From contig JABCSY010000034.1 of NCBI GenBank assembly GCA_018238625.1, positions 1 through 37,413 of the forward strand: a stretch of 37,413 nucleotides of DNA, written 5' to 3'. The stretch comes from Promethearchaeota archaeon (GTDB taxonomy: Archaea > Asgardarchaeota > Lokiarchaeia > Sigyniarchaeales > SOKP01). Below are positions 1 through 21,908 of the stretch, in pieces (the stretch's first letter is position 1; each line of letters starts with the position of its first letter). A program made the translations under genes and the position numbers. The notes below the pieces were generated by a model. That model was not told where the DNA came from. It did not search any database and was given only the letters and a program-made list of their open reading frames with translations.

Positions 1-3000
1 AAGAAAGCAATGATTGACCCGTACTGGTTAGTAAAATTCTTTAAGCGTCTTATAAATATGTATACTCGAAAATTCATTTTCTTTATGACCTCTAACTCTT
101 TCTCGTCAAGCATATTCAGAACCTCAAAATTTTCGTAATATAACCCAATTTGGGGATTGAATTTTCCATTCAGTTTTCCAGCGCTAATCAAAGAGATAAG
201 ATGTTTTTGGATTTGCTGTTTTTTTATTTTTAATTCATTCTGTAAAAAGCTTAACGTAAGAAATTCGTTAGCAACAGCCTTTATCGCCATTTCAACGTAC
301 GATTTTATTACTAACTCTTCTAAAGATTTAACTTTCTCCCTTAAAATGTCGCTAAACTCTTTTATAAAACGATCAAAATCGTCAATTATGTGTTTATTTT
401 TAGTTTCAAAATTATTTGATTGTTTGTTAAATTCTTTTATTAGCTCTTTGTTTCTTTTATTAACATCTTTTATTTCTTGTTCAATGTTTTTCTTTCTTTT
501 ATTTACTTTTAGATATGCCCTTTTAAATTGTTCTGTTTCGATATAATCTTCAACTCTCGCTTGAAGGCTACCCAATAATTGACTCAAATGAATTTTATTT
601 CTATTTATATCGATTAATAATTTGCCGCGACAAGTCTCAAATCTTAAAGTATTTATCTGTTCGTTAACAAGATATACCTTTTCTTCGTACTTTTTTAGAG
701 ATTCATTCTTTTTCTTAATGTAGAATTCTCTTGCTTCTGTCTCAAACTTTCTTGATTCATAAGTATTATTAATAACTAAATTCAACTTTTCTTCGATCTT
801 TTCATCAACTTGTTTAAATTTCCTTTCGACTTTTTCCTTTCTACTTTCAAGAATTTCTTTCATTTTCTCGTATGCTTCGATCTTTTCGACATCTTCCGAG
901 AGTTTATCAAATTGATTCTTTATTTCTATTTGAAGGACGTTATAGGTGTTGCTTATAAAATTTAGTAACTCATTAAAAAGTGTTAGATTCTGTTTTATAT
1001 TTTCTATTGCTAACCGATCATTACTGATGATTGAGTTAACTCCTTTTTTGAGTTCCATGTTTTCGATTCTTGCTTCGTCAACATTTAACTCTTTACTCTT
1101 CACATCGTATCGCTTATTAAAAGATTCCTCTAATTTGCTCAAATCATCAATTCTATTTTGAATTTCTAACAAATTTACTCCTAAAGTTTTATTTTTTATA
1201 CAAGAATCGTAAAGTGCTAAAAATTTTCCAATGGATTCCTGCGTTTGTTTCAAAATCCGGTTTTCTACGTAATTTTTTAACTCTCGACCCTTGTAATATT
1301 CCTCTGTATGAACTATTAGTTCCTTTTTATCTTCAAATAAAACTCCTTGTATTTTGGAAATTTCTATTAAATTTTTTATCCTTGGGATTACGGCTTTACA
1401 TTTGAGGTCTAACTTGTCAGCTAGCTTTTTAATATCAATTTTATCTGTGTTTTCTTCCTTACTCAAAAATAATATTTCGCTAGATATTATATTGTCTACA
1501 TATTCTTCTTTTAATTTGGTTATTTCTTCACTTAAAAAATCTTTAAATTTGTTCCATTGCATTGTCGTAATCGAATTTTCTTCAAACTCATCAACAATCC
1601 CTTTTAGATCAATTAACTTTTTGGAAAATTTCTTATTATGCTCGTTAAATTCAATAAGGATCTTGTCAAAGCCGTTAACTACATTGACAATTTTTTTAAT
1701 TCTATTTTGATTGAGATATATTTTGTAATTCTCTATTTTATCTTTGAAGCGTGTAATTGTACTAGAAATATAATTATCATAATCTTCAATCTTCGTCCTA
1801 TTTCTCTCTTCAATAACTTTTTCCTTTATAAATTGCACTTGTTCAGCTACTAAATCAATAATGTTTTCTTCGAGACGATCTAACTTTTCCTGCAAGTATT
1901 TATAGAGAAGGTAAAGCTTTTGTTTGAATTTTATTTCTTTTTTCACAATCGATTTTAAATCTTTAATCTCTTCAGTTTTTTGTTTTAATATAATATCGGC
2001 TTCTTTTTTGATGATTTTAAACGCGTCATGAAATTCGTTATTAATAACTTTATTTTTCACATTTTCTCTTATTTCTAATATCCCCGCTTGGATATTATCC
2101 TTGACGTTCCCGATTTTTTCATTTAATTCGTTAAAAAATTGGAATCCATTCGTATAATCTGCAAAAATCGAATCAAATTTCGATTTTGATTCGACCCAAT
2201 TGTTAATTATTTTTCTGTGTTTTTTGACTACTTTTTTTTCCTTGACCGTAATTTGGTGAGAAATTTTGTAGACGATTTCATCGTATCTATTTACGTTTTG
2301 CGATATCTCATTAAACGATTGAACGATAAGATCAAACTTTTCCTTACTATAGCCGTCTTCAAGAATTTCTACAACAAAATTCTTAAAAGTATTTAATTCG
2401 CGATTTATATAATCTTGAATATTATATACCTTAGTATTCAATTCATCTAAGATTACAATATACTTTTTTAATTGCTCTTTTTCTTGAATTCTTCCTTGAA
2501 GATATTTATTTAATTCGTTCATTCTATTTTGCAAAAGCGAGTAAGCTTTGTTCCATTGCGATATTTCAGACCCTAATGTAGCTTGTAAATTAATATAAAT
2601 TAATTCTTGATTAAACCCGGTTTCAACGTTTTCGTTTAAGAAGTCAGCTTCCATCAAAGCATCTCGCATAATGAACTTTAACCTTTCTTTAGCAATCTCA
2701 ACTTCGTCCAATAAAAGATAAGATTCAATTTCTTCCCTAATCTGTGGAATAGTATTCTCTAACTTTAATATCATATTATAGATATCGTTTTTAAATTCTT
2801 TTAATTTCGCTTTTTCCTCGTATAACCTCTCTGTATTAATCTCGTTATCAGAAACGATTACTTTCTCATAAAGAAAGTTTAGATATAAATAAAATTTAGT
2901 TCTAAATAAAAATGCTTTTTTTGTTCTAATTTCTCCTTCAAAAAAATGATTGCTAATTAAGTCGTAAATTAAAGGAAAAATGTCTTCTTTCAATTTTAAA

Positions 3001-5941: not shown

Positions 5942-6188
5942 AAAATTAATTGTATTTTTAATTATTAAAAAATCGATATAATTATTATACCTTAATGTAA
6001 AAATAGAAAATATACAAATATAAATGTTGCCAGAAGAAATCTACTAGGTCTAATTATCTGTTGATAATCAAAAAATTTAAATGTTTTCTTAAATCTAGGA
6101 TTTCTTTTGCCTATCATAAAACACCTTAGAATTAAAGATCAACAAATCTATTTAAAAAATCATAAATAAAATAAAAAAAGAAAATTTA

Positions 6189-6205
6189 ATGAGCGGATTG
6201 CTCAT
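6189..6205 (-). terminator. Short hairpin followed by T-rich tract, putative terminator of the FAD/Fe-S operon
   Basis: ATGAGC-GGATT-GCTCAT inverted repeat just past the stop at 6212, followed on the minus strand by T runs. Confidence 0.4.
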
Positions 6206-6211
6206 ATTTTT

Positions 6212-7594
6212 TTAGCCTAAAAAATCTGCTTCGGTCGGTTTTTCGAGAATATCTAATAAGTTATTTTCTATAATCAATTGTAAAACGCCCTTAACTTGCA
6301 TACCATGATTATAGAGGTTATTCGCATCGTCTAAATTCCTCCAACAGAAGGGACATTCCGTTAGCAAGAAGTCTGCTCCTACCGCGTTAGCCTCATCGCA
6401 CCTTAAGCTAGCTGTTCTAATCGAGAAATCAGGATATCCTGCTCGAACTCCACCTCCAGCTCCACAGCACATAGAATTCATTCTTATTCGATACATTTCG
6501 TTAAACTTGAGTCCCACATCTTCTTCTAGCTTTTTAAGTATAACTCGCGGTTTATCGAACCATTCGTCAATCATTTTATTAACTTTTCTCATATCGAACA
6601 TAAGGTTCTTAGATTCTTTGATCATGTTCTGTTCCATATCAACCGCAAAATGCCTGCCTGTATGGCATGGGTCGTGGTAGGTAATTACTTTTCCCTTTAA
6701 TTCCTTGTTAGCTTTAAACTTTATCTTCTCTTTTTGAATAAGATCAGTTATTAATTCAAACGCGTGCAAGGTTTTAAAAGGAAGTTTCTCGTCTTCTGCC
6801 ATCCACTTTGGATAATCAATTGTTATCGTTCTGTAGCATCCAGCACACGAGAAATAAACCATTTCCAAATCCTTAAAATTTTCAAGATTCTTTCTCATTA
6901 ACTCTTGTGCTGTTTCTACTGCACCAATTCTAAAGAAAGGACTACCACAACACACTTCTTCTTCAATTAAAGTAAAATTAATACCTAATTTCTCGAAAAG
7001 TTTTGCGGTCGTTACAGCGACTTCTATTTGACGATAACTAGCAGTACAGCCTACGTAATACCCTACTTTTGCACCTTTATTATTAACGAACTTTCCTAAG
7101 CCCGCATCTTTAGCCCATTTGAATCGTTCCTCAGCTTTGCCACCGTATGGATTGTTCAATTCTTTGACCAATCTATCAACCAAAGCGTGCTTTTCGATCA
7201 TAGGTACTCCTGATTCTATTAACGCAGCCCGTAAAGATTCGATAATATCTACGGTAGGGATCTTATTTTCGCATTGGGCAGAACATTGACCACAAGTTAT
7301 GCAGGGCAAAATAACATCTCTTACTTCTTCAGAAAATTCTAAATCTCCGCTTAATATCGACCTAGCTATCCACATCTTGCCAGCGTTCCAAAAAGCTTCC
7401 CATCCATATTCTATTCCAGCTGGACACGAGTCAATCATACCTTCGTAAAGAACTGTACCTTGTTTTCCAGTGAATTCCCCTATTCCGTCTCTACTAGGCT
7501 CTCCCGAATAAGCAAACCTACACGCTTTACAGTGGATACACTTATATATTTCCTTCTCCAATTCTTTTAATCTTTCCATTCCAGTTTTAGCCAT
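6212..7594 (-). CDS. Fe-S oxidoreductase, HdrD/GlcF family (2x[4Fe-4S] plus two CCG domains)
   Basis: CIHCKAC...CP and CITCGQCSAQC; EVCCGSP, SCAGCYRT, YHDPCHTGR, MCCGAGGG, TECPFC. Confidence 0.92.
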   Translation of the reverse strand: MAKTGMERLKELEKEIYKCIHCKACRFAYSGEPSRDGIGEFTGKQGTVLYEGMIDSCPAGIEYGWEAFWNAGKMWIARSILSGDLEFSEEVRDVILPCITCGQCSAQCENKIPTVDIIESLRAALIESGVPMIEKHALVDRLVKELNNPYGGKAEERFKWAKDAGLGKFVNNKGAKVGYYVGCTASYRQIEVAVTTAKLFEKLGINFTLIEEEVCCGSPFFRIGAVETAQELMRKNLENFKDLEMVYFSCAGCYRTITIDYPKWMAEDEKLPFKTLHAFELITDLIQKEKIKFKANKELKGKVITYHDPCHTGRHFAVDMEQNMIKESKNLMFDMRKVNKMIDEWFDKPRVILKKLEEDVGLKFNEMYRIRMNSMCCGAGGGVRAGYPDFSIRTASLRCDEANAVGADFLLTECPFCWRNLDDANNLYNHGMQVKGVLQLIIENNLLDILEKPTEADFLG

Positions 7595-7616
7595 TTTTTT
7601 TTACCTCCTTGTTCAG

Positions 7617-9104
7617 TTATGGAAGAGCGAGCCTCCCAGGGTGCATTATCATATTAGGATCAAATATTTTCTTCATCGTTCTCAAATATTTCCAGTACAT
7701 TCCTGCTTGAGAATAAGTGAGAGGCGCGTGGATGTATGGGTCAGGTCTATAATTCAACCACCCTTGTTTAAGCGCGTATTCTGTTGTTTCTCTATTCATC
7801 TCTTGAACCTTTTCGATATCTGATTGTTTTGTGCTGTCGAAACAAATGATGGGCATACAAATTGCTTGCCTACAACGCTCAATACTAGCAATCCACATAA
7901 CTTCTGGGAACCCATATTTCTTCATAGCAGCACAATACATTTCAGCGAAATGGGCGCATTCGTTCCATGGTGTATAGAAAGTAATAAATAAAAATCCTGC
8001 CTCCCAAAACGCATACGGAACCGCAATCTTATTGGGTTTCTTCAATCTGCTTGCAATCTGTTTGGGATGTAGTTCCTGAGGTTTCATGCTATCAGGGTCT
8101 TTGGCTCTGTTTTTCTTGAAATCTTCAGCCATTTTATTGATTCTATTAACCACATAATCTAACTCTTCTTGAGTTTGTGCCCAGCACTCCCAATTCATCC
8201 ACCACTTACTAATTCCTAGTTGTTCGTAGAATTCGTAATCGTGAGGAACTTTATCCTTCGGCCAACGTGTCATCACCAAAGGGTAATTCCCACCTTGAAC
8301 CATAACTGTATTATGGGCAATTCCAAATTCTTGCTTTCCAATTTCAAGCGTTAGGTCCTGCATATCCTCAGGATTGGACATACCCCATACAACTACAGTC
8401 TTAAATTTTGGATGTGGGTATATTTTAACTGCGACTTTAGTCATTACGCCTAGAGTCCCTTGTGAACCCATTAAAAAGGACCAGATATCTGGACCTATTC
8501 CGTATTTATAGAACGGTTTCGCAAATGGAAGTGCCCAAGAGCCAGTTCGCACAATATCTCCGTTTGGAAACACAATCTCGCCACACATGAAGTTATCACC
8601 TTGTGGGCCAACGGAACTAGTGTAGAGGGAAAATCCTCGATCGATAGCATCGCCCATTACGGTAGAGGCTGGTGGGGCACCGTCTGGTACGGGAGGCGCC
8701 CATTCTGGGTAATTTTTGTGCATGTAACCCCAAAGCTCCCCAATCGTGACTCCTGGTTCGACTACGACGTAACGATTCTCTGTATCGACTTCGATAATTC
8801 TATTCATTCTACCTAAATCAAGCATAACTCCAGCAGGCTTAATGGTTGGACACGCAAAGCCGCCAGATAGTCCGCCTGAAACCGGTGAGACTGCAATTTT
8901 TTCTGCAGAGCAGTAAAGTAGAATTTTACGAATCTCTTCCACGTATTTAGGGCGTACGACGATATCCGGAATCTGGGCTTCTAATCCCATTACAGATTTG
9001 GAAAGATATGACGCTGTAATTGCCTTGTTATTGGTGGCGTACTCCTTGCCTACGATCCCTATCATGGCATCTAAATCTTTATCATCTGGTAATTTATAGC
9101 TCAT
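7617..9104 (-). CDS. FAD-binding oxidoreductase, VAO/PCMH (GlcD-like) family
   Basis: PDIVVRP, DLGRMNRIIEVD, VVEPGVT, GSQGTLGVMTK, KKIFDPNMIMHPG; adjacent to HdrD/GlcF partner. Confidence 0.92.
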   Translation of the reverse strand: MSYKLPDDKDLDAMIGIVGKEYATNNKAITASYLSKSVMGLEAQIPDIVVRPKYVEEIRKILLYCSAEKIAVSPVSGGLSGGFACPTIKPAGVMLDLGRMNRIIEVDTENRYVVVEPGVTIGELWGYMHKNYPEWAPPVPDGAPPASTVMGDAIDRGFSLYTSSVGPQGDNFMCGEIVFPNGDIVRTGSWALPFAKPFYKYGIGPDIWSFLMGSQGTLGVMTKVAVKIYPHPKFKTVVVWGMSNPEDMQDLTLEIGKQEFGIAHNTVMVQGGNYPLVMTRWPKDKVPHDYEFYEQLGISKWWMNWECWAQTQEELDYVVNRINKMAEDFKKNRAKDPDSMKPQELHPKQIASRLKKPNKIAVPYAFWEAGFLFITFYTPWNECAHFAEMYCAAMKKYGFPEVMWIASIERCRQAICMPIICFDSTKQSDIEKVQEMNRETTEYALKQGWLNYRPDPYIHAPLTYSQAGMYWKYLRTMKKIFDPNMIMHPGRLALP

Positions 9105-9306: not shown

Positions 9307-9533
9307 AATCGAATAGCCTTAAACTAAGTTAACTACTCTGTTTATTTCGGCATGTAGTTGAATTACGGTAAAAGGTTTACCGATAAAGGAAACAGCTCCT
9401 ATTTCGAGCGCTCGTCCTTTAATTGAATTATCTGCGCTTGCAAAAAGAATTTTTATGTGACTATTAATTTTTAGTAATTCTATGGCAGTATCAATCCCAT
9501 TTTTCACTGGCATTCGATGGTCCATTAAAATTA
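9307..9533. repeat. Direct repeat copy 1 (3' two-thirds of response regulator gene plus short 3' flank); copy 2 at about 11440-11667
   Basis: Colinear similarity, including AAATCGAATAGC past the stop codons and TGGTCCATTAAAATTA at the other end. Confidence 0.85.
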
Positions 9534-9684
9534 CATCAGGTTTAATAGAAAAAGACATGAATTTTTCAATGGCTTCTTTTCCATTACTTGCCTTATCAAT
9601 GACTTCAAATCCGAAAGTCGTTAACATCATCTCGTATAGCCTTTGCAAAGATAAATCGTCTTCTACGATAAATATTGAAATCAT
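9319..9684 (-). CDS. Stand-alone response regulator receiver (CheY-like)
   Basis: IFIVEDD, phosphoacceptor in ILMDHRMP, FASAD, FIGKPF. Confidence 0.95.
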   Translation of the reverse strand: MISIFIVEDDLSLQRLYEMMLTTFGFEVIDKASNGKEAIEKFMSFSIKPDVILMDHRMPVKNGIDTAIELLKINSHIKILFASADNSIKGRALEIGAVSFIGKPFTVIQLHAEINRVVNLV

Positions 9685-9685
9685 T

Positions 9686-11227
9686 TTAGTTCACCTCTGG
9701 TATCAAAAGAATAAAATTACTTCCTTTAGTATAATCTCCTTCGACCCTATCCTCTACCCAGATTTGTCCATTGTAGTTTTCAATTATTTTTTTGACAAGA
9801 GTTAAACCTAAACCTAACCCCATTTTATCTTTTTTTTCGTTATAACCTCTTTGAAAGACTTTTTCTTTCATTTCGGGTAGGATACCAATTCCGTTATCAA
9901 AAAATTCAAGTTTAAGATAATAAATTTCATTCTTAAAGACTTTAGAAATTTTTATTATAATCTCGATTAATGGATTTTGATTGTGTATTATCGCATTTAT
10001 CAATATATTTTCAAAAACAACTCGTAATAATTCATTAGTTTTAATGAATAACTTTTTGTAATCACACTGAATCTGAATAATTATTTTTTTCTTTTTGTAT
10101 ATTTTGATGAGATTGTTTTTTATTTCTTGTAAAACTTCAATTAACTCGATTTTATTTAGTATAAGTTTATGATCCTCAATTTCAGAAAGTTTTCTTATAT
10201 TAGATACTAAATTCGTACCTCTCTTGACTTGATCTCTTATTATCTCTAACAATTCATCATCATTTTCAAGATTTAAATCTCCCTGAACACTTAAAGTGAT
10301 TAACTCAACTGAAGATTGAATATTTTGAAAGATGTTGTTTATATCATGGGTGAAAATGTCTTTATAAAAATTAACATGATTATAAGCTTCACGATATTTT
10401 ATTTCAGATTGTTTTAGTTTTAGTTCTGTATTTTTTCTTTTTGTAATATCTTGTATTATAAATTGTATCACTGTTTCTTTCCCAATTTTTGATAAAGAGG
10501 CAGTAGCACTAACCCATAATTTATCTCCAATTGATCGATGTATTGGAAACTCAAATGTTAAAGATTTTTCATCTTTTGCTATTGTTTCAAGGATTTTTTC
10601 GAATAATAGAATATTGGGTTTATCTTTTTCGTGGTAACTCCAAAATTCATTAAAATTTTTTCCGATTATATCGTCTTCTAATGTGTGTTTCGATAAAAAC
10701 ATATTTGTAGCTTTATTGCAATCCAATAAATTTCCATCTAAATCAAAAATTCCTATGGAATAAGGAGAACTCTCAAATAAGTAACGATATCTTTTTTCTG
10801 ATTCTTTTAACAATTTTGCAGTTCTTAAGTTGTTTTTAACTTCTTCTTGTTTTGTAATATCTTCAGTAGATACTAAGATTATGTCTGGAGGAATATATTT
10901 ATAAATAACGTAGAGATTTCGAAACATTCCAGAAGTTTTGTAGAAATAACGCATCTCTTTAGATAAGTCTAATTTATTTTCAAAACAGTTAAAAACATCC
11001 TCTATAATATCTTGTCTTTTTTTATACAACTCTGTTAATTTTCGTCCTAAAAAACCCTCCATTTTTTCGTCGGCAAATAAATTTGCGGCTTGATTATAGT
11101 CTAATAATTCAAAATCTTTATCATGATATTTCCAAATATAAGTCGGAATCGGAATTGATTTAAAAAATGTCCTATATATTTCTGGAGTTCCATTTAATTT
11201 AGTATTTCTCGCACCATTTATCTTCAA
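9686..11227 (-). CDS. PAS-PAS sensor histidine kinase (soluble)
   Basis: Two PAS-like domains (ending STEDITKQ and IIQDITKRK); H-box FTHDINN, N-box FENILINAIIH, DNGIGI, GLGLGL. Confidence 0.95.
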   Translation of the reverse strand: MKINGARNTKLNGTPEIYRTFFKSIPIPTYIWKYHDKDFELLDYNQAANLFADEKMEGFLGRKLTELYKKRQDIIEDVFNCFENKLDLSKEMRYFYKTSGMFRNLYVIYKYIPPDIILVSTEDITKQEEVKNNLRTAKLLKESEKRYRYLFESSPYSIGIFDLDGNLLDCNKATNMFLSKHTLEDDIIGKNFNEFWSYHEKDKPNILLFEKILETIAKDEKSLTFEFPIHRSIGDKLWVSATASLSKIGKETVIQFIIQDITKRKNTELKLKQSEIKYREAYNHVNFYKDIFTHDINNIFQNIQSSVELITLSVQGDLNLENDDELLEIIRDQVKRGTNLVSNIRKLSEIEDHKLILNKIELIEVLQEIKNNLIKIYKKKKIIIQIQCDYKKLFIKTNELLRVVFENILINAIIHNQNPLIEIIIKISKVFKNEIYYLKLEFFDNGIGILPEMKEKVFQRGYNEKKDKMGLGLGLTLVKKIIENYNGQIWVEDRVEGDYTKGSNFILLIPEVN

Positions 11228-12094: not shown

Positions 12095-12904
12095 TCAATC
12101 TTTTTTTAAAAACCTTTTTGAAGAGAATCTTATGCCGAAAAACAAGAAAAACAAAGAGAAGATCAATGTTAACGGTAAATGTCCAATAACAATGTAGGCA
12201 AAAGCGGGTTCTGATGAGTAGGCAAATAATACAATTGTTACAACTAAATGAATGATAGAGTTCGCAATGGCAACTCTTCGATTTGGAGATAAAATACCAA
12301 AAAGAAAATTGGGAAATAAAAATAAAATCATAATATTTCCAGTTGATAGCAGAATCATAGCCGGAAAAAATCTTGTGAACAGCTCATCACCATATAGATA
12401 TTGAGTTAGGTTAAAAGCCTCAAAAAGAAAAAGAGTAGCATAAATACTGAGTAAAATTAAAGGGTACATAAGCGATCCGTTAATTAACCACGATATTACC
12501 ACTCTAATTATGGGTGTGCTTATAATTTTTCCTTTTAGATTGCTTTGAATGTTTTTTTCCATTTCTTCTTGAATGATTTTTTCTGTGTCGTAATCAGGTG
12601 AATAGGAATCGATAAATTCTTGTAAAATATTTTTCAAAATGTTAGAGACCAATTCGTTGTTATCGTTTGAACTCACGATCGCGGCTCCGAGTAACCGTTC
12701 GTCTTGTTTTGAGACGATGATAAGTTTATTGTTTTCCCCAAGATCAACGTTTTTAACTGCCGTACCTAAGGCTTCCCTACTAAAGTTAGTGATAGATGTG
12801 AAAAACCCTATTAATAAATTATCGTCGTACTTTTGTTCTCTCTCAAAAGATTTGGAATATAATAAAATTCCTTTATTATCCATGATATATAGATTTTTTA
12901 ACAT
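12095..12904 (-). CDS. Longin-like domain fused to about 4 transmembrane helices
   Basis: N-terminus LYIMDNKGILLYSKSF...DDNLLIGFFTSITNFSREALG...LKNILQEFIDSY fits the longin beta-beta-alpha-beta-beta-beta-alpha pattern; four hydrophobic segments follow. GAGGAGTG precedes ATG 12904. Confidence 0.72.
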   Translation of the reverse strand: MLKNLYIMDNKGILLYSKSFEREQKYDDNLLIGFFTSITNFSREALGTAVKNVDLGENNKLIIVSKQDERLLGAAIVSSNDNNELVSNILKNILQEFIDSYSPDYDTEKIIQEEMEKNIQSNLKGKIISTPIIRVVISWLINGSLMYPLILLSIYATLFLFEAFNLTQYLYGDELFTRFFPAMILLSTGNIMILFLFPNFLFGILSPNRRVAIANSIIHLVVTIVLFAYSSEPAFAYIVIGHLPLTLIFSLFFLFFGIRFSSKRFLKKD

Positions 12905-12943
12905 ACTCACTCCTCTTGTTTTGTCATAATTTAGTTTTAAATT

Positions 12944-14647
12944 TTATTTATTTTCAACAAATTCTAAATATTCTCCAATGGAGGCATTAGATTTTTTAAA
13001 ACATTGTAATTGTGGACCAAATAATTCTGTTATCCTTACAATTACGTTATTTGTATTCGATTTAAGAAAAATCTTATATTTTTCATTCTTTCTTTCTTCG
13101 ATTATTACTTCAATTTCTTCTATTTCTTCTAGTTTTCTAATTAAGAACTCTTCAGGATCGTTTAGTTCTATCGTTACAATCTCGCCATATTGAGGCAGTT
13201 CTTTAATATAATCCTTAAAAGATCCTATTTTTGATGCTGTTTTGGTGATCGTTAAAATTTGGTCGCAATTTGATGCGATCTCCTCAGATCCATGGAAAAT
13301 CATAATCACATGAAATTCTTGCTTAATTTTATCCATGTAATTGTTAAATTTTTCGTATTCTAATTTTCCTAAAATTCCATAAGGTATTGAAAACATTATA
13401 ATCGTTGGTGCTTGGATTAAAGCGCGTGCTATTGAGAAAAGCAGGTATTCTAAAGGTGTTAACTCTGAGAACTTCTTATTTTTCTTATTTAGCATCCCAG
13501 TTACTTCCAAAACATTTTTTAGGAACTGTTTTTTACGATTGAATTTGTAAATTGTATCCGAAACTAAATCTTCAATAATTTCATCTATACTTTGACCTAA
13601 TCCAGCATTTTTTAAAATTGCGTTGAATTCATTCTTTCTCCCTTTATATATCTTATTCAAGTTTATCTTGTATTGAATTGCTTTCTTTACCTTCATATTT
13701 GTTATTACTGAGTTGTAAGCAGGAGGTAAAAGAAAAATTTTCTCTTTTTCTTTTTTTGATAACGATTTTATGGGATTTCCGAAAATTTCTATTGACCCTG
13801 AAAAATCTAGTTGCGAGCCTGCTATGGTCTCAAACAGATTCAATAAGTCTAATCTATGATCCACATTATTTAAATACTCTTCGTCGTACATAATGCCAAT
13901 AGACTTTCCTCTATGAATCTTAAAAGAAAGATTATTAATTGCTTCTCCCACTGACACGTCATTAAGAATTAAATATTGAGAATTTTCTTTTAAAGGTTCG
14001 AGATTGGCCTGTTTTGAAATAATTTCACAGATTTTTTCAATTATTTCAAGAACATGCGGAGGATTTTCTATATCCCAGTTTCTTATAATCTCTTCTTGGT
14101 TAAACTTTTTTTCAGTAATAATCCTTGACAAAGATCTTGAAAATGAAAAGGAAGGTAAAATTGGGTATTTTTCAAATTTAATTTTTAATTTGGTAGCGAA
14201 ATTGGGATAAGAGATTCGAATCTCTCTATAGTATGGGTTATTTCTTATTTGATAATTTTCAAACTTATTATCAATTAGTTCAACCTCATAGTTCAAAATT
14301 TCTAAGCGTTTTTGAAATTCTTGCCTAAAGAGGCTCCTCATGCGCCGAATAATTTTCATTGGATTAATAAAACCATCTTTATCGAAGCTTGGATTAAATA
14401 TAATCTCACTGAAATCAATCTCATCTTCAATAGGAGTATAAATCTTTAATAATGGAGCTCCTTTCTCCAAGACATCGCTATTAGTAAAAAATAATATTTC
14501 AATAAACGACCTTTTATAAATTAAATCAATAATAGAAGCAATCCCAAAAGTATCTTCTCTATAAGTCATCCAAAAACGTTTAGAAAGCCGGATTGCGCCC
14601 AAGATTTTTAATCTTAATCGTTCTAATTCTATTTCTCTATTCTTCAA
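12944..14647 (-). CDS. UBC/RWD(UEV)-like domain(s) fused to a degenerate (inactive) ABC ATPase and C-terminal regulatory domain
   Basis: KIKFEKYPILPSF...IIRNWDIENPPHVLEIIEKI; ABC scaffold INNLSFKIHRGKSIGI, SIARALIQAPTII, FHGSEEIASNCDQI; Walker A, LSGGQ and DEP replaced. GAGGTG lies 7 nt before TTG 14647. Confidence 0.7.
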   Translation of the reverse strand: MKNREIELERLRLKILGAIRLSKRFWMTYREDTFGIASIIDLIYKRSFIEILFFTNSDVLEKGAPLLKIYTPIEDEIDFSEIIFNPSFDKDGFINPMKIIRRMRSLFRQEFQKRLEILNYEVELIDNKFENYQIRNNPYYREIRISYPNFATKLKIKFEKYPILPSFSFSRSLSRIITEKKFNQEEIIRNWDIENPPHVLEIIEKICEIISKQANLEPLKENSQYLILNDVSVGEAINNLSFKIHRGKSIGIMYDEEYLNNVDHRLDLLNLFETIAGSQLDFSGSIEIFGNPIKSLSKKEKEKIFLLPPAYNSVITNMKVKKAIQYKINLNKIYKGRKNEFNAILKNAGLGQSIDEIIEDLVSDTIYKFNRKKQFLKNVLEVTGMLNKKNKKFSELTPLEYLLFSIARALIQAPTIIMFSIPYGILGKLEYEKFNNYMDKIKQEFHVIMIFHGSEEIASNCDQILTITKTASKIGSFKDYIKELPQYGEIVTIELNDPEEFLIRKLEEIEEIEVIIEERKNEKYKIFLKSNTNNVIVRITELFGPQLQCFKKSNASIGEYLEFVENK

Positions 14648-17600
14648 TTTTAGGCACCTCAATTAATTTGTATCTGAAGAATTGTTCCATTTTAGAATCG
14701 ATTTGCTTTATTTCTTGGATGGAATCTTTACCAATTTCACTTTCGATTTTTTCAATTAGTTCTTTTACGTTTAATTCTGTAAATAACGAATAATCAGTTC
14801 CCGCTTTATTTTCAAGAACGTTTTCTATGCCATCTATAGATTCGAGCGTTTCAATTACGTTTTCTTTTAGCTCGGTAAAACATACTTCTACAGAGCGTCC
14901 TTTTCCTGGTAATTGGGCTAATAGATATTTTGGTTTCCCGAAGTCTATAACACCGCGATTTCTGCCGAAAATAGCAACACGATGGCAGAAGCGTGATTCT
15001 TCGGGGTAATGAGTTATTACAATTAGAGTAGTTCCAAATTGCTCGTTGATTTTTGTAAGGGCTAGCCATAAATTTTCGCGTATGATAGGATCTAATCCTG
15101 AAGTAGGTTCGTCTAAAATAAGAAAGATTGGGGAGTGAATTAGCCCGATTGCAATGCTTACCCTTCTTTTTTGACCCCCCGAAAGGTTTCTCACGAATTC
15201 ATCCATTTTATCTTCAATTTCAAGATTACGCAAAAGTCTCCTAGATCTACTTATTATTTCTTGTTCCGTTAACCCATATTGATTTCCAAAATACAATAAG
15301 TTTTCAAAAACAGTAAAATTATGATAGATTTTCCCTAGATCTTGGGGTACATAGCCATATATGGGTCTAATCTTTTTAGAATTTTTTTTATTAATGTTCA
15401 TTCCATAAATTTTACAAAACCCCGTAATTTTTCTCATTCCCAGCAACCCTTTTACAAAAGTTGACTTTCCTGCCCCACTTTCCCCTAAGATTCCTAATAT
15501 TTGACCATGTTCTATTTTCATTGACACAGAGTCAACAATCAATCTTCCTCCAGCATATACGCTAAAATTTTCGCAATCGATTGCTGGAAATCTTTGTAAA
15601 TAGGATTGTGTAATTCTTCCACCAAGACCTAATTTTTCTTTAATTCTTTTCAATAACGCGAGTCTTTTGCGAATTTTTAAAAATATAAATAGACCAATAA
15701 ACCCAGCTTCAGTAAGTAAGATATAAATTAATAATTGGTTCCAAGGTTTTGAATCAAAACTCTGGTCATATTTTAATTCGTCTATAATTATAATTCCATA
15801 GGGCGAATTTCGTAAATCAGCTCCAAAATCAGGGGTATCCCCTATTCCTCCCGTATTGGTGCTTATACATCCCGAAAACCAGACTAAAGCTTCTTGAATG
15901 TTATCAGGTTGAAAGTTGTAGTCGTAAAGCGCCTTAGAAGCGAGATAGGTCACTAAAAAAGATGAAGGTAAATCTAAAAATACCCCCATCATGGGTAGAA
16001 GGGAAAAACTTCCATCGGAAGTTTGCGAAAGCTTTAAAAAATCAATTGCGGTCATTTTAGACATTGGACCGTTAACAAAACCCTCGTAAAAGATTTGCAA
16101 ACCGTAATATGTAGAAATAACGTCGCTATGAAATCCCATAACGATTGAAAATCCTCCATCAGCGTTTTGGCACGACCTTACCCAATGAGAAAGATTATTA
16201 TAATGAATCCGATCTAACCCATTAATTAATTTTAGAGAAATTAAAGCCCAATATGTACTTTCTACAGTGGAAACATTTGTATTGATTAAATTAGTAAAAA
16301 TCATAGAATAAGACCCAAAAAGAGATAATAAATAATCGATATCGTTTCCAACTCTGAAACCTCCATCAGGATTTTGCAAGTTAGATAAGAAGTTTTTTGT
16401 CAAATTTAAGGTATTTGGAAGAAACCAAGGTTGATTTGCGGGATTATTTGCGGGATTAAGCATTTGAAATAGTTTTAATCCACAATACGTAGCAAAAAGA
16501 GTTGCTTCTTGACCTGGTTGCGAACCAAACCCTCCATCGTGAATATTATAACATGTATTTGTAAAATATAAGATATTGTTTTTTATGTATTGAAATTGCG
16601 CGGTCTGTATTGAATCGAGATACCCCATGCTAAAATAAGTTAAAATTCCAAAATAATTAGTTTCAATTGTTATTTGCCCAAATAGAGCGTTTTTTGCTTG
16701 GAAAAAGTGTAGCCATTCATAGTAATTAATTTTAATTTGTTTTATAGCCTCAATTACTTCTTGAGTAAGAATTAACTGACTTTCTAAAATTCTAATTGAT
16801 TTCATTGCCGCCCAACCAGATGTGAAATCAGATTTAGTTACATTTGGATGAAAACCAAATCCTCCATCATTATTTGAACAATTCAAGATAAATTCTAAAG
16901 TTTTAGAGGCATTTATTAAAGGAAGCTCTAATAAATCTAGCGAAGAAATAGCGTAATAAGTTGATTGGACATCAGTAATACCTGCTAAAATGTTACTATA
17001 GCCACCATCGAATGGGTTATGCAATGAGTTAAAATAAGCTCCAATGGCTATTACTTCACCTAAATTATAAGACATATTCATTCCTAGAAAAGCTCTTACA
17101 CCATAGAAGGTCGTTTCTGGATTTGAAACTAAAGAGTTATTTGTTATTCGATAACTACCTCCAAACCATGTAGAATTAATAAATTCTTCAATATTTTGAT
17201 TAAGAAGTAAAGAACTCTCTGATAAACTATATGCGAGTTCAATCGCACAGAATGTAGAAATAATGTCAGAATCGTTTAAAAATGGCATAATCTTAAATCC
17301 CCATCCGCCTCCGTTTAAAGATTTTACTAAATAGTTAGCAATATTATTCGTTTCTCCTAGATTTATCTTGCGTTCAAGATACGATTTATTGGTTATTTCT
17401 AAAGTTTCGATTGCTTCATAGGTTGAAAACATATTTCCAAATTCTGCTATATCTGAATAAGACCCATCCACATTTTGTTTTTCAAAGATATAATCAAAAA
17501 AGAAATTGCGGAAAAAAGCTTCAATGTTTAGATTATTATTAGGATTTATTAATTCAGGAGCATTAATATTTGAAAATGTGAAATTAATAGAATCGATAGC

Positions 17601-17828
17601 TCTAAAATTTGAATCAATATCGGGTTCTATAAACAATCCTACATCGTTATGGTGAGTGCTTGTAAAAGAAGTTGCCATATTTTTAATTTGTTCTGCATTT
17701 TTTTCGTCAATATAATAAGTCCAATGAACATTTACTAAAACCAAAGTTGTAATTGGAGTTCCGATAAGAATACAGACTATAATAAAATTTTTTAGTCTTT
17801 TTTCGTTTTTCCGACTTAATTTTAAGAT
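14637..17828 (-). CDS. Fusion: signal anchor, extracellular prenyltransferase/squalene-cyclase repeat domain, TM helix, intact ABC ATPase
   Basis: About 9 repeats such as KQNVDGSY, CSNNDGGFG, LQNPDGGFR, CQNADGGFS, SQTSDGSFS; TM LLIYILLTEAGFIGLFIFL; GESGAGKS, YVPQD, LSGGQ, LILDEPT, ITHY. The frame is open upstream of TTG 17744 and encodes RKNEKRLKNFIIVCILIGTPITTL; start uncertain. Confidence 0.85.
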   Translation of the reverse strand: MLKLSRKNEKRLKNFIIVCILIGTPITTLVLVNVHWTYYIDEKNAEQIKNMATSFTSTHHNDVGLFIEPDIDSNFRAIDSINFTFSNINAPELINPNNNLNIEAFFRNFFFDYIFEKQNVDGSYSDIAEFGNMFSTYEAIETLEITNKSYLERKINLGETNNIANYLVKSLNGGGWGFKIMPFLNDSDIISTFCAIELAYSLSESSLLLNQNIEEFINSTWFGGSYRITNNSLVSNPETTFYGVRAFLGMNMSYNLGEVIAIGAYFNSLHNPFDGGYSNILAGITDVQSTYYAISSLDLLELPLINASKTLEFILNCSNNDGGFGFHPNVTKSDFTSGWAAMKSIRILESQLILTQEVIEAIKQIKINYYEWLHFFQAKNALFGQITIETNYFGILTYFSMGYLDSIQTAQFQYIKNNILYFTNTCYNIHDGGFGSQPGQEATLFATYCGLKLFQMLNPANNPANQPWFLPNTLNLTKNFLSNLQNPDGGFRVGNDIDYLLSLFGSYSMIFTNLINTNVSTVESTYWALISLKLINGLDRIHYNNLSHWVRSCQNADGGFSIVMGFHSDVISTYYGLQIFYEGFVNGPMSKMTAIDFLKLSQTSDGSFSLLPMMGVFLDLPSSFLVTYLASKALYDYNFQPDNIQEALVWFSGCISTNTGGIGDTPDFGADLRNSPYGIIIIDELKYDQSFDSKPWNQLLIYILLTEAGFIGLFIFLKIRKRLALLKRIKEKLGLGGRITQSYLQRFPAIDCENFSVYAGGRLIVDSVSMKIEHGQILGILGESGAGKSTFVKGLLGMRKITGFCKIYGMNINKKNSKKIRPIYGYVPQDLGKIYHNFTVFENLLYFGNQYGLTEQEIISRSRRLLRNLEIEDKMDEFVRNLSGGQKRRVSIAIGLIHSPIFLILDEPTSGLDPIIRENLWLALTKINEQFGTTLIVITHYPEESRFCHRVAIFGRNRGVIDFGKPKYLLAQLPGKGRSVEVCFTELKENVIETLESIDGIENVLENKAGTDYSLFTELNVKELIEKIESEIGKDSIQEIKQIDSKMEQFFRYKLIEVPKIEE

Positions 17829-18859
17829 ATAATTCCACCTTCACTATTTATTTCAGAAATATTTACTTCATTTTCTTTTTCTTCTTCCTCTTGGATTCTG
17901 ATCTGAAAGAGTCTTCTAAAATTGGCAATATCCCTACTCATTGAATAAATTTTAACATCATTTTCAAATAAGTATTTCATTAATTTAGGCAAGTTATTCT
18001 CAAAATTTTCCATTAATACTTCGATAGTTTCATTTCCAACGCGTAATACATTTTTGACCGAATCAAATTTTTGAACCGTTTTTATTACTTTTTGATCTAA
18101 ATTTTCGATTGAAATTCTCGCTACTAAACCCCCACTGGGCAGAGAAGATATTAACTTTCGAGGCGTGTCAAATTCGAGTAATTTCCCCTGCCTTAATATC
18201 GCAGTTTTATCACATATTAGTGCCGCTTCTAAATCGTGTGTAATAATAAACATGGTTGTGCCTAAATGCTGGTTTAGCTTCTTTAGATAACTGAGTATAT
18301 CATAACGTTTCGACGCATCCACACCAGTCGTGGGTTCGTCAAGAAAGAGAACTTTTGGGTTGTGGATTAAACCAATAGCCATTGAAAGACGCTTCTTTTC
18401 GCCCCCGCTCATCCGAGATACCCTTTTTTTCCAAGTATCCTCGGGAATGTCTAATATTTTAAACAGCTTTTCAGCGGTTTTTTTTGCCTTCTTTTTGTTC
18501 ATTCCATAAGTAGATGTAAAAACCTCGACATTTGACATAGGATTTAATTCAAAATATAAATTCAATAGTTCTAGTTGAGGAACGTATCCAATATTACTTA
18601 GAATTTTTGAATGATTTCTTTTTTTCCTAGGATTTAAACCCGTAACTTCTACATTTCCGCTCCAATTTTTCTTTTCAATTTGGCATGTTAGTACCCTAAT
18701 AATTGTTGTTTTTCCAGCGCCTGAAATTCCAAACATACCAATGATTTCGCCTTGGTCCACATTAAAAGATACATCATGTACAATTTGGTTTTTCCCAAAT
18801 GTGACATTTAAGTTTTCCACGAGTACCATTGAATTATCAGAAGGATTAGAAATCTCCAT
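17822..18859 (-). CDS. ABC-2 type transporter ATP-binding protein (DrrA/CcmA-like)
   Basis: GISGAGKTT, YVPQ, MSGGEKKR, LFLDEPT, ITHD; GAGGTG precedes ATG 18859. Confidence 0.95.
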   Translation of the reverse strand: MEISNPSDNSMVLVENLNVTFGKNQIVHDVSFNVDQGEIIGMFGISGAGKTTIIRVLTCQIEKKNWSGNVEVTGLNPRKKRNHSKILSNIGYVPQLELLNLYFELNPMSNVEVFTSTYGMNKKKAKKTAEKLFKILDIPEDTWKKRVSRMSGGEKKRLSMAIGLIHNPKVLFLDEPTTGVDASKRYDILSYLKKLNQHLGTTMFIITHDLEAALICDKTAILRQGKLLEFDTPRKLISSLPSGGLVARISIENLDQKVIKTVQKFDSVKNVLRVGNETIEVLMENFENNLPKLMKYLFENDVKIYSMSRDIANFRRLFQIRIQEEEEKENEVNISEINSEGGIIS

Positions 18860-18860
18860 T

Positions 18861-20093
18861 TTACACCTCATATTTCCTTCTTTGAAATATTATAAAGGAT
18901 GCAATTACAAGAAAAACGCTAACGCCTAATAAAGTAAAAAAGTCAAAACCAAATATTGATTTTCCCTTAGTAATTATTCCTGTTATTAACGGACTTCCAT
19001 GCGATAAAGGAAGCGCATATGCCATTATTTGTAAGTAAATCGGCATGGCATCAATAGGAATAAATATTCCACTTAGAAGAAGTAAAACTAGAAAAGTAGC
19101 ATAAAATAATTGATTTGCTTGAGTTTTAGTTTTGCTTAATGTGCTAATAAAAATACCCATAGCAAGGCCGGTAAATCCTAAAATAAATAATGCGAGGAAT
19201 AAATCGAACACTGACCCTACTACATATAACCCAAATACTAAAGCACTAATAACAAGTGAAAGATCTTGAATAATCACAATGCTTATATAAGTGATATATT
19301 TTGCAGATAGAATCTCAGCCCTTTGAACGGGAGTAAGCAATAATCTCGCAATTTGATTTTCTTGAACTATTGTTAAAATTGTTGAGACCATCCCAACTCC
19401 TATAACCATAAAAGAGAGAAGAAGTACCATGGCATAATTAAATCTAAAGTTATAGCCTTCAGGAATTGAAAATTCTTCAAAACCACTAACTTCAAATTGA
19501 GGGGTCAAATTATTTTGGTTAACAAAAATTTTAATAGAATCGTAAACAGCATTTAAATTTTCTTGAATTTTTAAAAAATCTGATGAATCTGATATACATT
19601 CTATTAAACCCGGATACCCAAAGATTAACAATTCAGAAAAGTCAACTGGAATTGCGATAATAACCTTAATTTTCTTTGAATTTAAATAATTTCTAGCCGT
19701 TTCCATCGCATAAATCTCTTCAGAAGCGTTAAAAAATTGTATAAGGTTTAATAAATTCGAACTGTTTACAGCCTCAACATAATTTATACTGTAATCATCT
19801 ATTTTTGTTTCCGTAAAATTATTTTCGTTAATATATGTGTTAGAATCATAGGAAATTACAACGCAATCTATAGGGTTGGAAGTAGTACTTCCAATGTTAG
19901 TGGTTACTCCTAATAAAGCAACTACAAGAGGAGGTATAATTAGTGCTATAAAAATATTGAATTTGTCAGTCCATAAAAGTTGAAATTCTTTCTTAGTTTG
20001 TCTAAGTAATCGAATTATACTTTTTTTAAAATTTAGTATTTTCGATCTAACTTCTTTAGACGATTTATCGTTGATTTGGTTGCTCCGTTTAAT
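18861..20093 (-). CDS. ABC-2 type permease (about 410 aa; N-terminus extends well beyond the ORF-track call)
   Basis: The frame is open from 20096 to ATG 19706 and encodes TKKEFQLLWTDKFNIFIALIIPPLVVALLG, matching IKKEFGRIKSDKRTLILLFAIP of the upstream permease; RLLLTPV, LSGIFIPIDAMP, LPLSHG. Confidence 0.85.
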   Translation of the reverse strand: MKRSNQINDKSSKEVRSKILNFKKSIIRLLRQTKKEFQLLWTDKFNIFIALIIPPLVVALLGVTTNIGSTTSNPIDCVVISYDSNTYINENNFTETKIDDYSINYVEAVNSSNLLNLIQFFNASEEIYAMETARNYLNSKKIKVIIAIPVDFSELLIFGYPGLIECISDSSDFLKIQENLNAVYDSIKIFVNQNNLTPQFEVSGFEEFSIPEGYNFRFNYAMVLLLSFMVIGVGMVSTILTIVQENQIARLLLTPVQRAEILSAKYITYISIVIIQDLSLVISALVFGLYVVGSVFDLFLALFILGFTGLAMGIFISTLSKTKTQANQLFYATFLVLLLLSGIFIPIDAMPIYLQIMAYALPLSHGSPLITGIITKGKSIFGFDFFTLLGVSVFLVIASFIIFQRRKYEV

Positions 20094-20096
20094 TCT

Positions 20097-21248
20097 TCAC
20101 ACCTCCACTTTTTTAAACTTATATGCGATATAAGCACTTAATAGAAAAACAAATGAAATTAAAAGAAGAGATAATGTGTGTTCTAAATTTAACGATAAAC
20201 CCCTTAAAGTTATATCCGTTATGAGGACTGAAGCGTGGCTTAAAGGAAGCATATCTGAAAGAAATCGCGCACTCCCCAAAGATTCAGGTGGTAAAACAGT
20301 TCCTGAAAAAATTATGATAATTATAAATAGCATCATGTACATTTGATTAGCTCCTTGTTCTGTTGGGCTAATTGCAGAGATAAATAAACCAATAGTTATC
20401 CCGCTAAAACCAATCATTAATAGAACTAGGTAAAAATTAAATAACGAGCCTAAACTATATAAACCAAAAAATGATGTCAATACGAATATTTCTGTAGCTT
20501 GCAATATCATTATTATAGCGTTTGCAATTAGTTTGCTAAGGATTACATCTCTTTTTTCAGTAGGCGTAATAAGCATTCGCGGAAGTGGAGCCTCAGAAAC
20601 AATTGTTAAAGATGTTAAATTCATCGTAGTTCCAATTATCATCATTGGTAAAACCAGAGCCAATGTGTAGTTGAGCAATTGAGATTCCCACGAAGGTACT
20701 CCAAATTCAAGGTGAGGGACCATTATTGTAAAATTTTCCAGCATATTAATTTCAACGCGAAAAAGAGCGAGAGGTTCTTGGAGAGCTACCTCAATTGCAC
20801 CAACAGCCATTAGATCAGATCCATCAATATAATAGATTAATATAGGATTAATTTTATTTGCTACAGATTCTGAGAAATTTTGAGGGAGCACAATAAAAAC
20901 ATCTATTACTTCATTTTTTAATAAATTAAAACATCGATCAAATGCTTCGTTATATTCTCCACTATTAGTACTATTATAGTATCGGTAAAGATCCCATGTT
21001 GTGGTATTTTGTTCCATTATCGAGATAAAAATATCATCGTATTGAGAAGAATTTGACGGGAAATTATCGTAAGTGGGCATTTCATCGAGAGTTATAATCG
21101 CAGAGGTAAAGAATTTTATAGGGCCAACACCCGTAGTAAGCCCAAAAATGACAATTAATATTATTGGTATTGCAAATAACAGAATTAAAGTTCTTTTATC
21201 AGATTTAATTCTACCAAATTCTTTTTTTATTAATCCGCCTATGTTCAT
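20097..21248 (-). CDS. ABC-2 type permease
   Basis: N-terminal TM, extracellular loop, further TMs; RMLITPT...ILSKL, FSGTVLPP, LPLSHA. Confidence 0.92.
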   Translation of the reverse strand: MNIGGLIKKEFGRIKSDKRTLILLFAIPIILIVIFGLTTGVGPIKFFTSAIITLDEMPTYDNFPSNSSQYDDIFISIMEQNTTTWDLYRYYNSTNSGEYNEAFDRCFNLLKNEVIDVFIVLPQNFSESVANKINPILIYYIDGSDLMAVGAIEVALQEPLALFRVEINMLENFTIMVPHLEFGVPSWESQLLNYTLALVLPMMIIGTTMNLTSLTIVSEAPLPRMLITPTEKRDVILSKLIANAIIMILQATEIFVLTSFFGLYSLGSLFNFYLVLLMIGFSGITIGLFISAISPTEQGANQMYMMLFIIIIIFSGTVLPPESLGSARFLSDMLPLSHASVLITDITLRGLSLNLEHTLSLLLISFVFLLSAYIAYKFKKVEV

Positions 21249-21344: not shown

Positions 21345-21908
21345 TTACTGCATAGTTTTGTCAACTGTTTGAAAAAATTTATGATCCGAAACTGGTGTTA
21401 ATTCATTCATTTTCAAAAGAGACCTTCTTTTTTTGTCTTTAACAATAAATTTTTGAAATATTTCATTGTTATCGCTAATAAATTCCCAAAATTCTTCGTA
21501 AATATCTTGTAATGTTCTATGATTTTTTCTATTATAGCTCTCTTCGATTTTTTTTGTTTCTTTTTTAGTATCTGGCATTTTTGGCATGTTTTTGATAGAA
21601 TTTTCCTTTGATACTGAAGATTTGTATAGTTTTAAACTATTTACAAAACTTTCTTCGTAATTATGTCTTAGATTTTTCTTCTTTTTGTCATTCTCTAATT
21701 GAAAATCAACTTTTTGATATCCCCGTATTTTAAAATTTTTGTCTATAAATAATTGGAAGTGATGTTGACAAATTTCACCTTTAGGTACAGAGACGGTTGT
21801 TAGTTGAGAAGCTTGGTTAATTACGGACTTAGGAATCCGTACCGTGTTCTGTGCTTTACACACAGGACAAATAACTTGAACATATCTATTAACTGTTATA
21901 GCTTCCAT
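21345..21908 (-). CDS. Hypothetical Zn-binding protein of a Lokiarchaeia-type family
   Basis: CPVC...ICQHHFQLFIDKNFKIRGYQKVDF motif, recalled as common in lokiarchaeal proteomes. Confidence 0.7.
   Translation of the reverse strand: MEAITVNRYVQVICPVCKAQNTVRIPKSVINQASQLTTVSVPKGEICQHHFQLFIDKNFKIRGYQKVDFQLENDKKKKNLRHNYEESFVNSLKLYKSSVSKENSIKNMPKMPDTKKETKKIEESYNRKNHRTLQDIYEEFWEFISDNNEIFQKFIVKDKKRRSLLKMNELTPVSDHKFFQTVDKTMQ

Follow-up and report, generated by a model that had tools for sequence, protein, structure and literature searches.

The beta subunits of the protein prenyltransferases, namely Rab geranylgeranyltransferase (RabGGTase)/GGTase-3, GGTase-I and farnesyltransferase (FTase), share a sequence repeat and an alpha/alpha toroid fold. 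They act in the cytosol as heterodimers with a PPTA alpha subunit, and their zinc site is Asp-x-Cys ... His. Class II cyclases, such as squalene-hopene cyclase (SHC) and oxidosqualene cyclase (OSC), have two toroids per chain in a beta-gamma arrangement and associate with the membrane surface. Among ATP-binding cassette (ABC) transporters, one half of an ABCA protein runs from a transmembrane (TM) segment through a large ectodomain and a further TM segment to a nucleotide-binding domain (NBD) and a regulatory domain. LptC is a helix-anchored exterior domain that receives the extracted lipid beside its transporter LptB2FG, and in MacB and FtsEX an exterior domain is moved by the ATPase cycle. 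ABC-2 (type V) exporters of the DrrAB, NodIJ and GldA type combine PF12698 and PF01061 permeases, which have an exterior loop after the first TM helix, with ATPases that carry a C-terminal domain. We analysed contig JABCSY010000034.1 of the Promethearchaeota archaeon assembly GCA_018238625.1 over its positions 1 to 37,413 (the window, 37,413 nucleotides (nt) in all). Here, gene E encodes a single chain of 1063 amino acids (aa) that joins a prenyltransferase-type double toroid, predicted to lie outside the membrane, to an intact ABC ATPase, and it sits in a conserved cassette with two ABC-2 permease genes and a second ATPase gene, D.

The E ectodomain has the repeat motif and the alpha/alpha toroid fold of the prenyltransferase beta subunits. 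Unlike them, E has two toroids per chain, is membrane-anchored, is predicted to be extracytoplasmic and is fused to an ABC ATPase; it also lacks the D-x-C...H zinc site, and no alpha subunit was found in its genome. With the class II cyclases it shares two toroids per chain and a predicted position at the membrane surface, but it superposes poorly on SHC and OSC, has no DxDD motif and is nearer in sequence to the prenyltransferases. Over both toroids the structure comparison program VIA aligned 463 residues of SHC and 477 of OSC at a root-mean-square deviation (rmsd) of 7.3-7.6, and the Foldseek template-modelling (TM) score was 0.23. The cassette as a whole resembles the ABC-2 exporters in its PF12698 and PF01061 permeases with an exterior loop after the first helix and in the C-terminal domains of its ATPases. 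Unlike in those systems, no family cut-off is reached, and a third, dead ATPase and two further subunits are present. A preliminary description of the DNA, made from the sequence alone, had likened the ectodomain to those of ABCA proteins. Part of that analogy holds, as the domain order of E mirrors an ABCA half. The rest does not: the ectodomain is on the ATPase chain and not on the permease, it is a toroid rather than the ABCA ectodomain, and E has only two helices. The likeness to LptB2FG-LptC and to MacB and FtsEX is one of idea only, these being other ABC types with other folds, and to our knowledge none of them has an exterior domain and a C-terminal NBD in one chain, separated by only a single helix. 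Our literature searches turned up no ABC transporter in which the ATPase chain passes through the membrane to a large exterior domain of its own, and no non-catalytic double toroid of the prenyltransferase or cyclase type serving as a transporter ectodomain. The architecture of E did not come up in passage searches of an Asgard transporter survey (PMC7997004) and of a 2026 structural-clustering preprint. The cassette has the appearance of an ABC-2 exporter with an unprecedented subunit design.

Gene E and its parts are listed below.

14637..17828, reverse strand: fusion gene E, 1063 aa, encoding TM1, the double-toroid ectodomain, TM2, the ABC ATPase and a C-terminal domain (open reading frame with PF00432 and PF00005)
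17835..17840, reverse strand: Shine-Dalgarno-like AGGTGG, 6 nt before the ATC start at 17828-17826 (sequence and locus comparison)
17730..17828, reverse strand: K/R-rich N-terminus, predicted to be cytoplasmic (6 K/R in aa 3-13), and TM1 (aa 14-33; hydropathy and homologues)
15738..17723, reverse strand: ectodomain, aa 36-697, two alpha/alpha toroids (AlphaFold2 model, Foldseek and VIA)
within 15738..17723, reverse strand: toroid A, approximately aa 95-385, and toroid B, approximately aa 386-687 plus the first helices at aa 43-90 (alignment ranges on the model)
15759..15848, reverse strand: last, membrane-adjacent repeat, aa 661-690, GIGDTPDFGADLRN...YDQS (most conserved 30-aa block of the ectodomain)
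15675..15737, reverse strand: TM2 (aa 698-718) with E707 inside, followed by KIRKRLALLKRIKEK (8 K/R; hydropathy)
14904..15596, reverse strand: ABC ATPase domain, aa 745-975, motifs intact, DrrA-like (PF00005 and TIGR01188)
14640..14903, reverse strand: C-terminal domain of the ATPase, aa 976-1063, of the type found after ABC-2 ATPases (alignment to the gene D C-terminus; GldA and drrA models extend past the NBD)

The ectodomain contains 10 clear [DNGT]G[GS][FWYI] repeats (at aa 121, 173, 223, 274, 321, 431, 488, 557, 605 and 659), and the alignment adds two degenerate ones at aa 59-66 and 377-384. The resulting 12 hairpins are enough for two toroids. This is close to the preliminary count of about nine QxxDGGF-type repeats, or roughly two barrels, and two toroids are seen in the model. 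Pfam PF00432 matched gene E at an E-value of 4.4e-33 (115.5 bits, cut-off 26.5). The AlphaFold2 model of aa 36-697, built from a 41-sequence alignment, has a predicted local distance difference test score (pLDDT) of 89.5 and a predicted TM-score (pTM) of 0.90. Its best Foldseek match was GGTase-3/RabGGTase beta (E-value 3e-9, target TM-score 0.65-0.68), and FTase and GGTase-I beta came next. VIA, which is independent of Foldseek, placed GGTase-I beta first (Z 27.1, rmsd 2.9, 285 aligned residues, model range 8..652), and the beta subunits of the GGTase-I, FTase and RabGGTase type as a group scored Z 24-27 at rmsd 2.8-3.8 over 274-292 residues. Scores were lower for class II terpene cyclases (Z 15-19) and for glycosidase-type barrels and thioester domains (Z 14-18). 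The single-domain cyclase alignments cover 60..349 of the model, which is toroid A alone. Because these ranges differ (8..652 versus 60..349), the first helices after TM1 appear in the model to pack with the C-terminal toroid, in a beta-gamma-like arrangement with toroid A as the insertion. Conservation is highest in the last repeat, next to the membrane, where the majority fraction is 0.80 versus 0.62 for the whole ectodomain and G663, D664, P666, F668, G669, D671, L672, R673, N674 and D688 are invariant.

We scanned the ectodomain for catalytic motifs. None of D.C, D.DD, D.D[DE], C..C or H..H is present in that of gene E, in line with the earlier statement that the zinc-binding DxC motif and the DxDD motif of SHC are missing. 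Of the 37 family members, 12 contain D.C, at positions that are not conserved, one contains D.DD and none contains C.EQ. The last of these is the CxEQ motif of A2M/complement thioester (TE) domains (PF07678); the TE domains of C5, TEP1 and CD109 score just Z 15-16 against the model. In the phmmer alignment with RabGGTase beta (5.2e-15), the DVCYSWW segment pairs with TDVQSTYY or TVESTYW, and DPFHT pairs with SDVIST. At the aligned repeats the position of the zinc Cys reads Q or E and that of the His reads S; the register between repeats is ambiguous, and the triad is found in no repeat. A search for the PPTA alpha subunit (PF01239) returned nothing over the cut-off in the organism's own genome. 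The toroids would be non-catalytic by every known criterion; a new active site is possible.

The ATPase half is intact. PF00005 matched aa 766-910 at 7.3e-27 (95.1 bits, cut-off 25), and the NBD motifs, already described as complete, are invariant in all 26 aligned members: Walker A (G782-T790), the Q-loop (Q829), the LSGG signature (882-885), Walker B with the catalytic Glu (D906-E907), the D-loop (SGLD, 910-913) and the H-loop (H940). The 11 divergent representatives all have Walker A, the signature and Walker B as well. The best NCBIfam match of E was TIGR01188 drrA (3.2e-46, 158 bits), under its cut-off of 312.45; gene D scored 194.2 against the same cut-off. Judged by these scores, E and D are DrrA-like and not members of the DrrA subfamily.

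Hydropathy identified two hydrophobic segments, at aa 14-33 and 698-718, and the repeat domain lies between them as first described. Family members that use ordinary starts, and all 11 divergent representatives, retain the N-terminus and TM1; TM1 would serve as a signal anchor, or might be cleaved as a signal peptide. Within TM2, E707 is invariant in 26/26 aligned members, and a Glu is found there in just 6 of the 11 divergent representatives. Six K/R residues precede TM1 and eight follow TM2, a layout kept in 11/11 representatives of 29-59% identity. Since the ATPase needs cytoplasmic ATP and is joined to the toroids through exactly one hydrophobic helix, the predicted topology implies that the toroids must face outside, and both membrane flanks obey the positive-inside rule, which agrees with this orientation. 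The preliminary description had placed the domain outside on the strength of its many N-x-S/T sequons; the location is retained, whereas the sequon argument fails. The composition of the ectodomain predicts 10.0 ± 2.7 sequons, and we counted 12. The family means are 13.7 versus 9.1 expected for the ectodomain and 3.5 versus 1.8 expected for the cytoplasmic part. Sequons were dropped as evidence of location because composition explains the count and the cytoplasmic part exceeds expectation as much. Six sequon columns (aa 82, 185, 212, 218, 441 and 518) are present in at least 60% of the 26 sequences.

The open reading frame of gene E extends from the stop codon at 17841-17843 to position 14637. 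A search allowing only ATG, GTG and TTG starts begins the gene at TTG 17744, in the middle of a hydrophobic segment, and gives 1035 aa. The 28 codons before this TTG encode ILKLSRKNEKRLK, which is K/R-rich and then continues into the 20-residue hydrophobic helix of TM1. In the alignment, homologues that begin at ordinary start codons share this N-terminus (MIIRLSRENKK... and MIIKLSRTGKRRLK... are examples), and the ATC start overlaps the end of gene D (stop TAA at 17824-17822). A GGTG[GA] box precedes the start in 23 of the 23 related loci with upstream sequence, at a spacing of 6-7 nt, and the codon behind it is ATC or ATA in 18 loci and TTG or ATT in five. Two related loci have no ATG, GTG or TTG at all within the first 50 codons. 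Because the N-terminus is kept in homologues and the box is kept in every locus compared, 14637..17828 with its ATC start is, on sequence grounds, the best model of the gene, and the start first proposed at 17828 stands. We also considered a frameshift fusion of D to E and rejected it: it needs a -1 shift, a slippery site is absent, and five loci have a plain TTG start right after the in-frame stop. The public cluster representative of the family (P0001), with 1035 aa, is shortened. Standard gene calls drop TM1 from E (ATC start) and from permease 2 (ATT start), so topology predictions on the database entries will be wrong. Gene E is single-copy in its 4.29-Mb genome.

The fusion is genuine, as first assumed, and not a sequencing error. 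PF00432 and PF00005 are present in one chain in the window gene and in 120 out of 120 best homologues, and every organism name given for these is Asgard. A search of the ectodomain against 1.84 billion representatives retrieved 11 full-length clusters (1042-1153 aa, 29-59% identity), all of them two-domain, and past these generic repeat similarity only. Open frames like gene E, approximately 1050-1090 aa long, were found in dozens of genomes. Independent contigs from two other studies span the cassette and bridge the D/E junction, with no indel inside E. Across 400 sampled genomes of the phylum, gene E was detected in 86, and in 22 of the 90 high-quality ones. Most occurrences are in its own family (75 of 134 genomes), including 25 of the 41 genomes of its own genus. 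Gene E is a patchy accessory gene.

The order of the cassette is A, permease 1, permease 2, D, E, F, G, on one strand, with gene ends overlapping or nearly touching. The genes other than E are as follows.

21345..21908, reverse strand: gene A, 187 aa, whose N-domain resembles a zinc ribbon (CPxC...CxHH), plus a K-rich linker and the conserved helix EIYEEFWEFI (sequence and locus comparison)
20097..21248, reverse strand: permease 1, ABC-2, 383 aa, with an exterior loop of approximately 150 aa between its TM1 and TM2 (PF12698, 2.9e-21; TM map)
18861..20093, reverse strand: permease 2, ABC-2, approximately 410 aa (PF12698/PF01061; start ATT at 20093-20091)
17822..18871, reverse strand: gene D, soluble DrrA-like ABC ATPase, 349 aa, likely NBD partner of E (PF00005, 3.1e-25)
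12944..14662, reverse strand: gene F, 572 aa, an N-terminal 220 aa and a degenerate ABC ATPase without Walker A, LSGGQ or DE (partial NBD in NCBIfam, GldA 4.7e-11)
12095..12910, reverse strand: gene G, 271 aa, a cytoplasmic N-domain and a hydrophobic C-terminal half (TM map; weak longin-type Pfam matches)

The two permeases are paralogous six-helix proteins. The ATT start of permease 2 lies 6 nt behind a GGAGGTG box that overlaps the end of permease 1 (final codons and TGA stop); an ATG call at 19706 removes TM1 and most of the exterior loop, and the N-terminal 115 aa are kept in 15 loci. The ATPases match the drrA, NodI and GldA models best, and gene D is 36% identical to the NBD of E over 260 aa. 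Gene F has no Pfam match at 0.01. Its model resembles the NBD plus regulatory (R) domains of MetN, ABCA and NosF over aa 230-570 and has pLDDT <50 over the N-terminal 220 aa; on the model, gene F is a degenerate NBD with an R-domain. The longin-type matches of gene G, Intu_longin_1 (0.037) and Sybindin (0.04), are both under cut-off. Gene A belongs to Asgard clusters only (Atlas). Its place relative to the cassette alternates between two sites: in 12 loci it precedes permease 1, and in five it follows gene G. A functional link of A to the cassette is suggested by this retained linkage at alternative positions.

Gene order is maintained among the related loci. Gene D is directly upstream of E in 21/21 loci with upstream sequence, gene F is downstream of E in all 26 loci, and G follows F in 23 of the 26, the other three stopping at the contig edge. 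Of the 17 loci whose sequence leaves space for the permeases, 15 have them upstream of D. The order permease, permease, D, E, F and, in part, G recurs in four remote genomes, whose E is approximately 34% identical, wherever the contig permits. In the 400 genomes, E occurs in 86 and F in 85, the genus tallies are near-identical, and 25 out of 25 E-positive genomes of the genus have F. An apparent E-F fusion in one genome (G223, open frame of 1509 aa) was rejected on account of a run of N in the scaffold.

We favour the reading, at what we take to be an even chance, that the product of gene E is an auxiliary subunit of a heteromeric type V (ABC-2) exporter, in which its toroids would gate or receive a cargo that is hydrophobic and may be isoprenoid. 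At the gene level, two PF12698/PF01061 permeases are encoded directly upstream of ATPases D and E, as in ABC-2 (type V) systems, and the cassette is conserved down to approximately 34% identity of E. E was initially called receptor-like. We set this description aside because E, as the fourth gene, behind the two permeases and D, sits within an ABC-2 transporter cassette and would be a transporter subunit rather than a stand-alone receptor. In the mechanism that we propose, D and E would form an NBD heterodimer beneath the permease pair, and the helix or helices of E would hold the two toroids close to the permeases' exterior loops. This arrangement is suggested by the cassette, the two intact paralogous ATPases, the outward toroids and the conserved membrane-proximal repeat. 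NBD closure driven by ATP could then be transmitted to the toroids directly through TM2, and the toroids may act as a non-enzymatic acceptor, chaperone or gate for hydrophobic cargo pushed from the membrane by the permeases. The cargo would most plausibly be isoprenoid-based, i.e. an archaeal lipid, a polyprenyl-phosphate-linked glycan, or a quinone or terpenoid. An isoprenoid is the natural guess by analogy, given the prenyltransferase fold and the isoprenoid nature of archaeal lipids. Regulation from the cytoplasmic side may fall to F (the dead ATPase), G (the membrane protein) and A (the zinc-ribbon protein).

Several observations weigh against this exporter reading. The cassette is lacking from 16 of the 41 genomes of the genus, some of them ~100% complete, so it is dispensable and not a core lipid pathway. 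In L019 and L025, two of the 17 loci with enough room, D has no permease genes beside it. If TM1 were a cleaved signal peptide, E could keep one tether only. The aromatic, S/T/D-rich starts of the repeat helices fit a sugar as well as an isoprenoid. Expression has no RNA support, since the two runs labelled RNA-Seq (X19 and X20) are flagged 'probably DNA' and cover contigs of relatives only.

The same data can be read in other ways. The ATPase cycle might move the toroids to do work outside, such as activating or releasing a surface protein or extracting a molecule from the envelope or a partner cell, with no solute passing through the permeases. Exterior domains are used in such mechanotransmission by FtsEX, MacB, LolCDE and BceAB. 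In E a single helix joins the NBD to the ectodomain and would be a direct mechanical link, the juxtamembrane repeat and TM2 are strongly conserved, with an invariant Glu in the close family, and three extra cytoplasmic subunits suggest regulation over bulk transport. The permeases, however, are ordinary ABC-2 (type V) rather than type VII, and the cassette encodes no candidate surface target; we regard mechanotransmission as unlikely, though worth keeping in view. We are more doubtful still that the toroids are a tethered binding protein or sensor, as the receptor-like description would have it, capturing a ligand outside and either passing it to the permeases for uptake or flipping or signalling to the ATPase. 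Membrane-tethered binding proteins do serve archaeal ABC importers, and a PAS histidine kinase and a receiver are encoded just downstream in the window, the kinase recurring in 13 loci. But ABC-2 permeases and DrrA-like ATPases are hallmarks of exporters and flippases, the kinase has no membrane segment and hence nothing links it physically to E, and neither Foldseek nor VIA found a known binding-protein fold.

Close structural relatives of the ectodomain are all enzymes, and invariant polar residues occur outside the repeat motif (K117, E68, D126, D496, R673, D688, C426, C449 and C654), which would suit a cryptic enzyme: one toroid would be catalytic through a new active site, for instance modifying a terpenoid or glycan on the exported substrate. 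The ectodomain has no zinc ligands, DxDD, thioester or conserved His/Cys cluster, the scattered D.C (12/37) and single D.DD (1/37) are not conserved, and the genome has no PPTA over cut-off, which makes an enzyme very improbable. An error of sequencing or assembly that joined two genes has a vanishingly small probability, considering the 120 two-domain homologues, the eleven two-domain clusters at 50% identity, the long frames in dozens of genomes and the agreeing contigs of other studies.

A more specific form of the exporter reading is an Asgard-specific, ATP-driven hand-off of isoprenoid lipids, which we consider a long shot. Here the ABC-2 core would lift an archaeal lipid or polyprenyl-linked molecule, the tethered double toroid would hold it outside for delivery to the surface, protrusions or a partner cell, and the longin-like, dead-ATPase and zinc-ribbon subunits would couple export to trafficking-type control. 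If true, this machine would be an archaeal equivalent in function of ABCA1 or Lpt, made from a prenyltransferase fold, with relevance to lipid exchange in models of eukaryogenesis. More generally, if the toroids bind isoprenoid cargo, the cassette would give Asgard archaea, whose membrane biology bears on the origin of eukaryotes, their first candidate device for lipid extraction or hand-off, and it would offer a route for non-catalytic use of the prenyl-binding fold of eukaryotic protein prenyltransferases. What is new here comprises the Shine-Dalgarno-led ATC and ATT starts (E and permease 2), the linked seventh gene, the co-occurrence counts, the synteny in remote lineages and a 31-nt insert in gene D of relatives, described below.

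Other features of the window and of the related loci were also recorded. The cassette is followed directly downstream (9319-11227, reverse strand) by genes for a soluble kinase of 513 aa, with PAS, HisKA and HATPase domains and no membrane segment, and for a receiver of 121 aa that consists of a single domain; this kinase is also downstream in 13 related loci. We rejected a Bce-like link of E to the kinase, as the kinase has no membrane segment. An Rce1-like membrane protease gene (CPBP, the 'CAAX prenyl protease' family) is located at 25081-25671 on the reverse strand, 3 kb from the cassette, with no evidence of a link. A second toroid protein, apparently cytoplasmic, is encoded at 3-4274 on the reverse strand; it has at least 1424 aa and runs off the window. 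PF00432 matches towards the N-terminal end (aa 52-207, 7.6e-10), and a PCI domain lies close to the C-terminal end (aa 1309-1373, 2.9e-6). PF00432 was detected in five reading frames of the genome. In the related locus L019, the region upstream of D (1-7900) contains almost no open frame of at least 90 aa and no permease genes, and its G+C content matches that found elsewhere in the locus.

The 31-nt insert in gene D was found in 6 of 135 genomes of the family, all from the genus of the window; the window's own gene D is without it. The genomes are G233, G239, G240, G260, G265 and G266 (L034-L039), with related loci at L001:8496-8519, L019:8441-8464 and L025:4906-4929. The insertion site corresponds to approximately position 18326 of the window, exactly between the Walker B codons (DEPTT) and GVD. 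The insert is single-copy in each genome, breaks the reading frame and contains stop codons, yet both halves of gene D stay conserved (74-80% identity). It is nearly invariant, whereas flanking synonymous sites are variable, and it forms a conserved hairpin. The exon bases flanking it pair with each other, with one compensatory change (GAA...GGT versus GAG...GGC), in a geometry that differs from the canonical bulge-helix-bulge. From its sequence, the insert is a candidate mRNA intron or recoding site.

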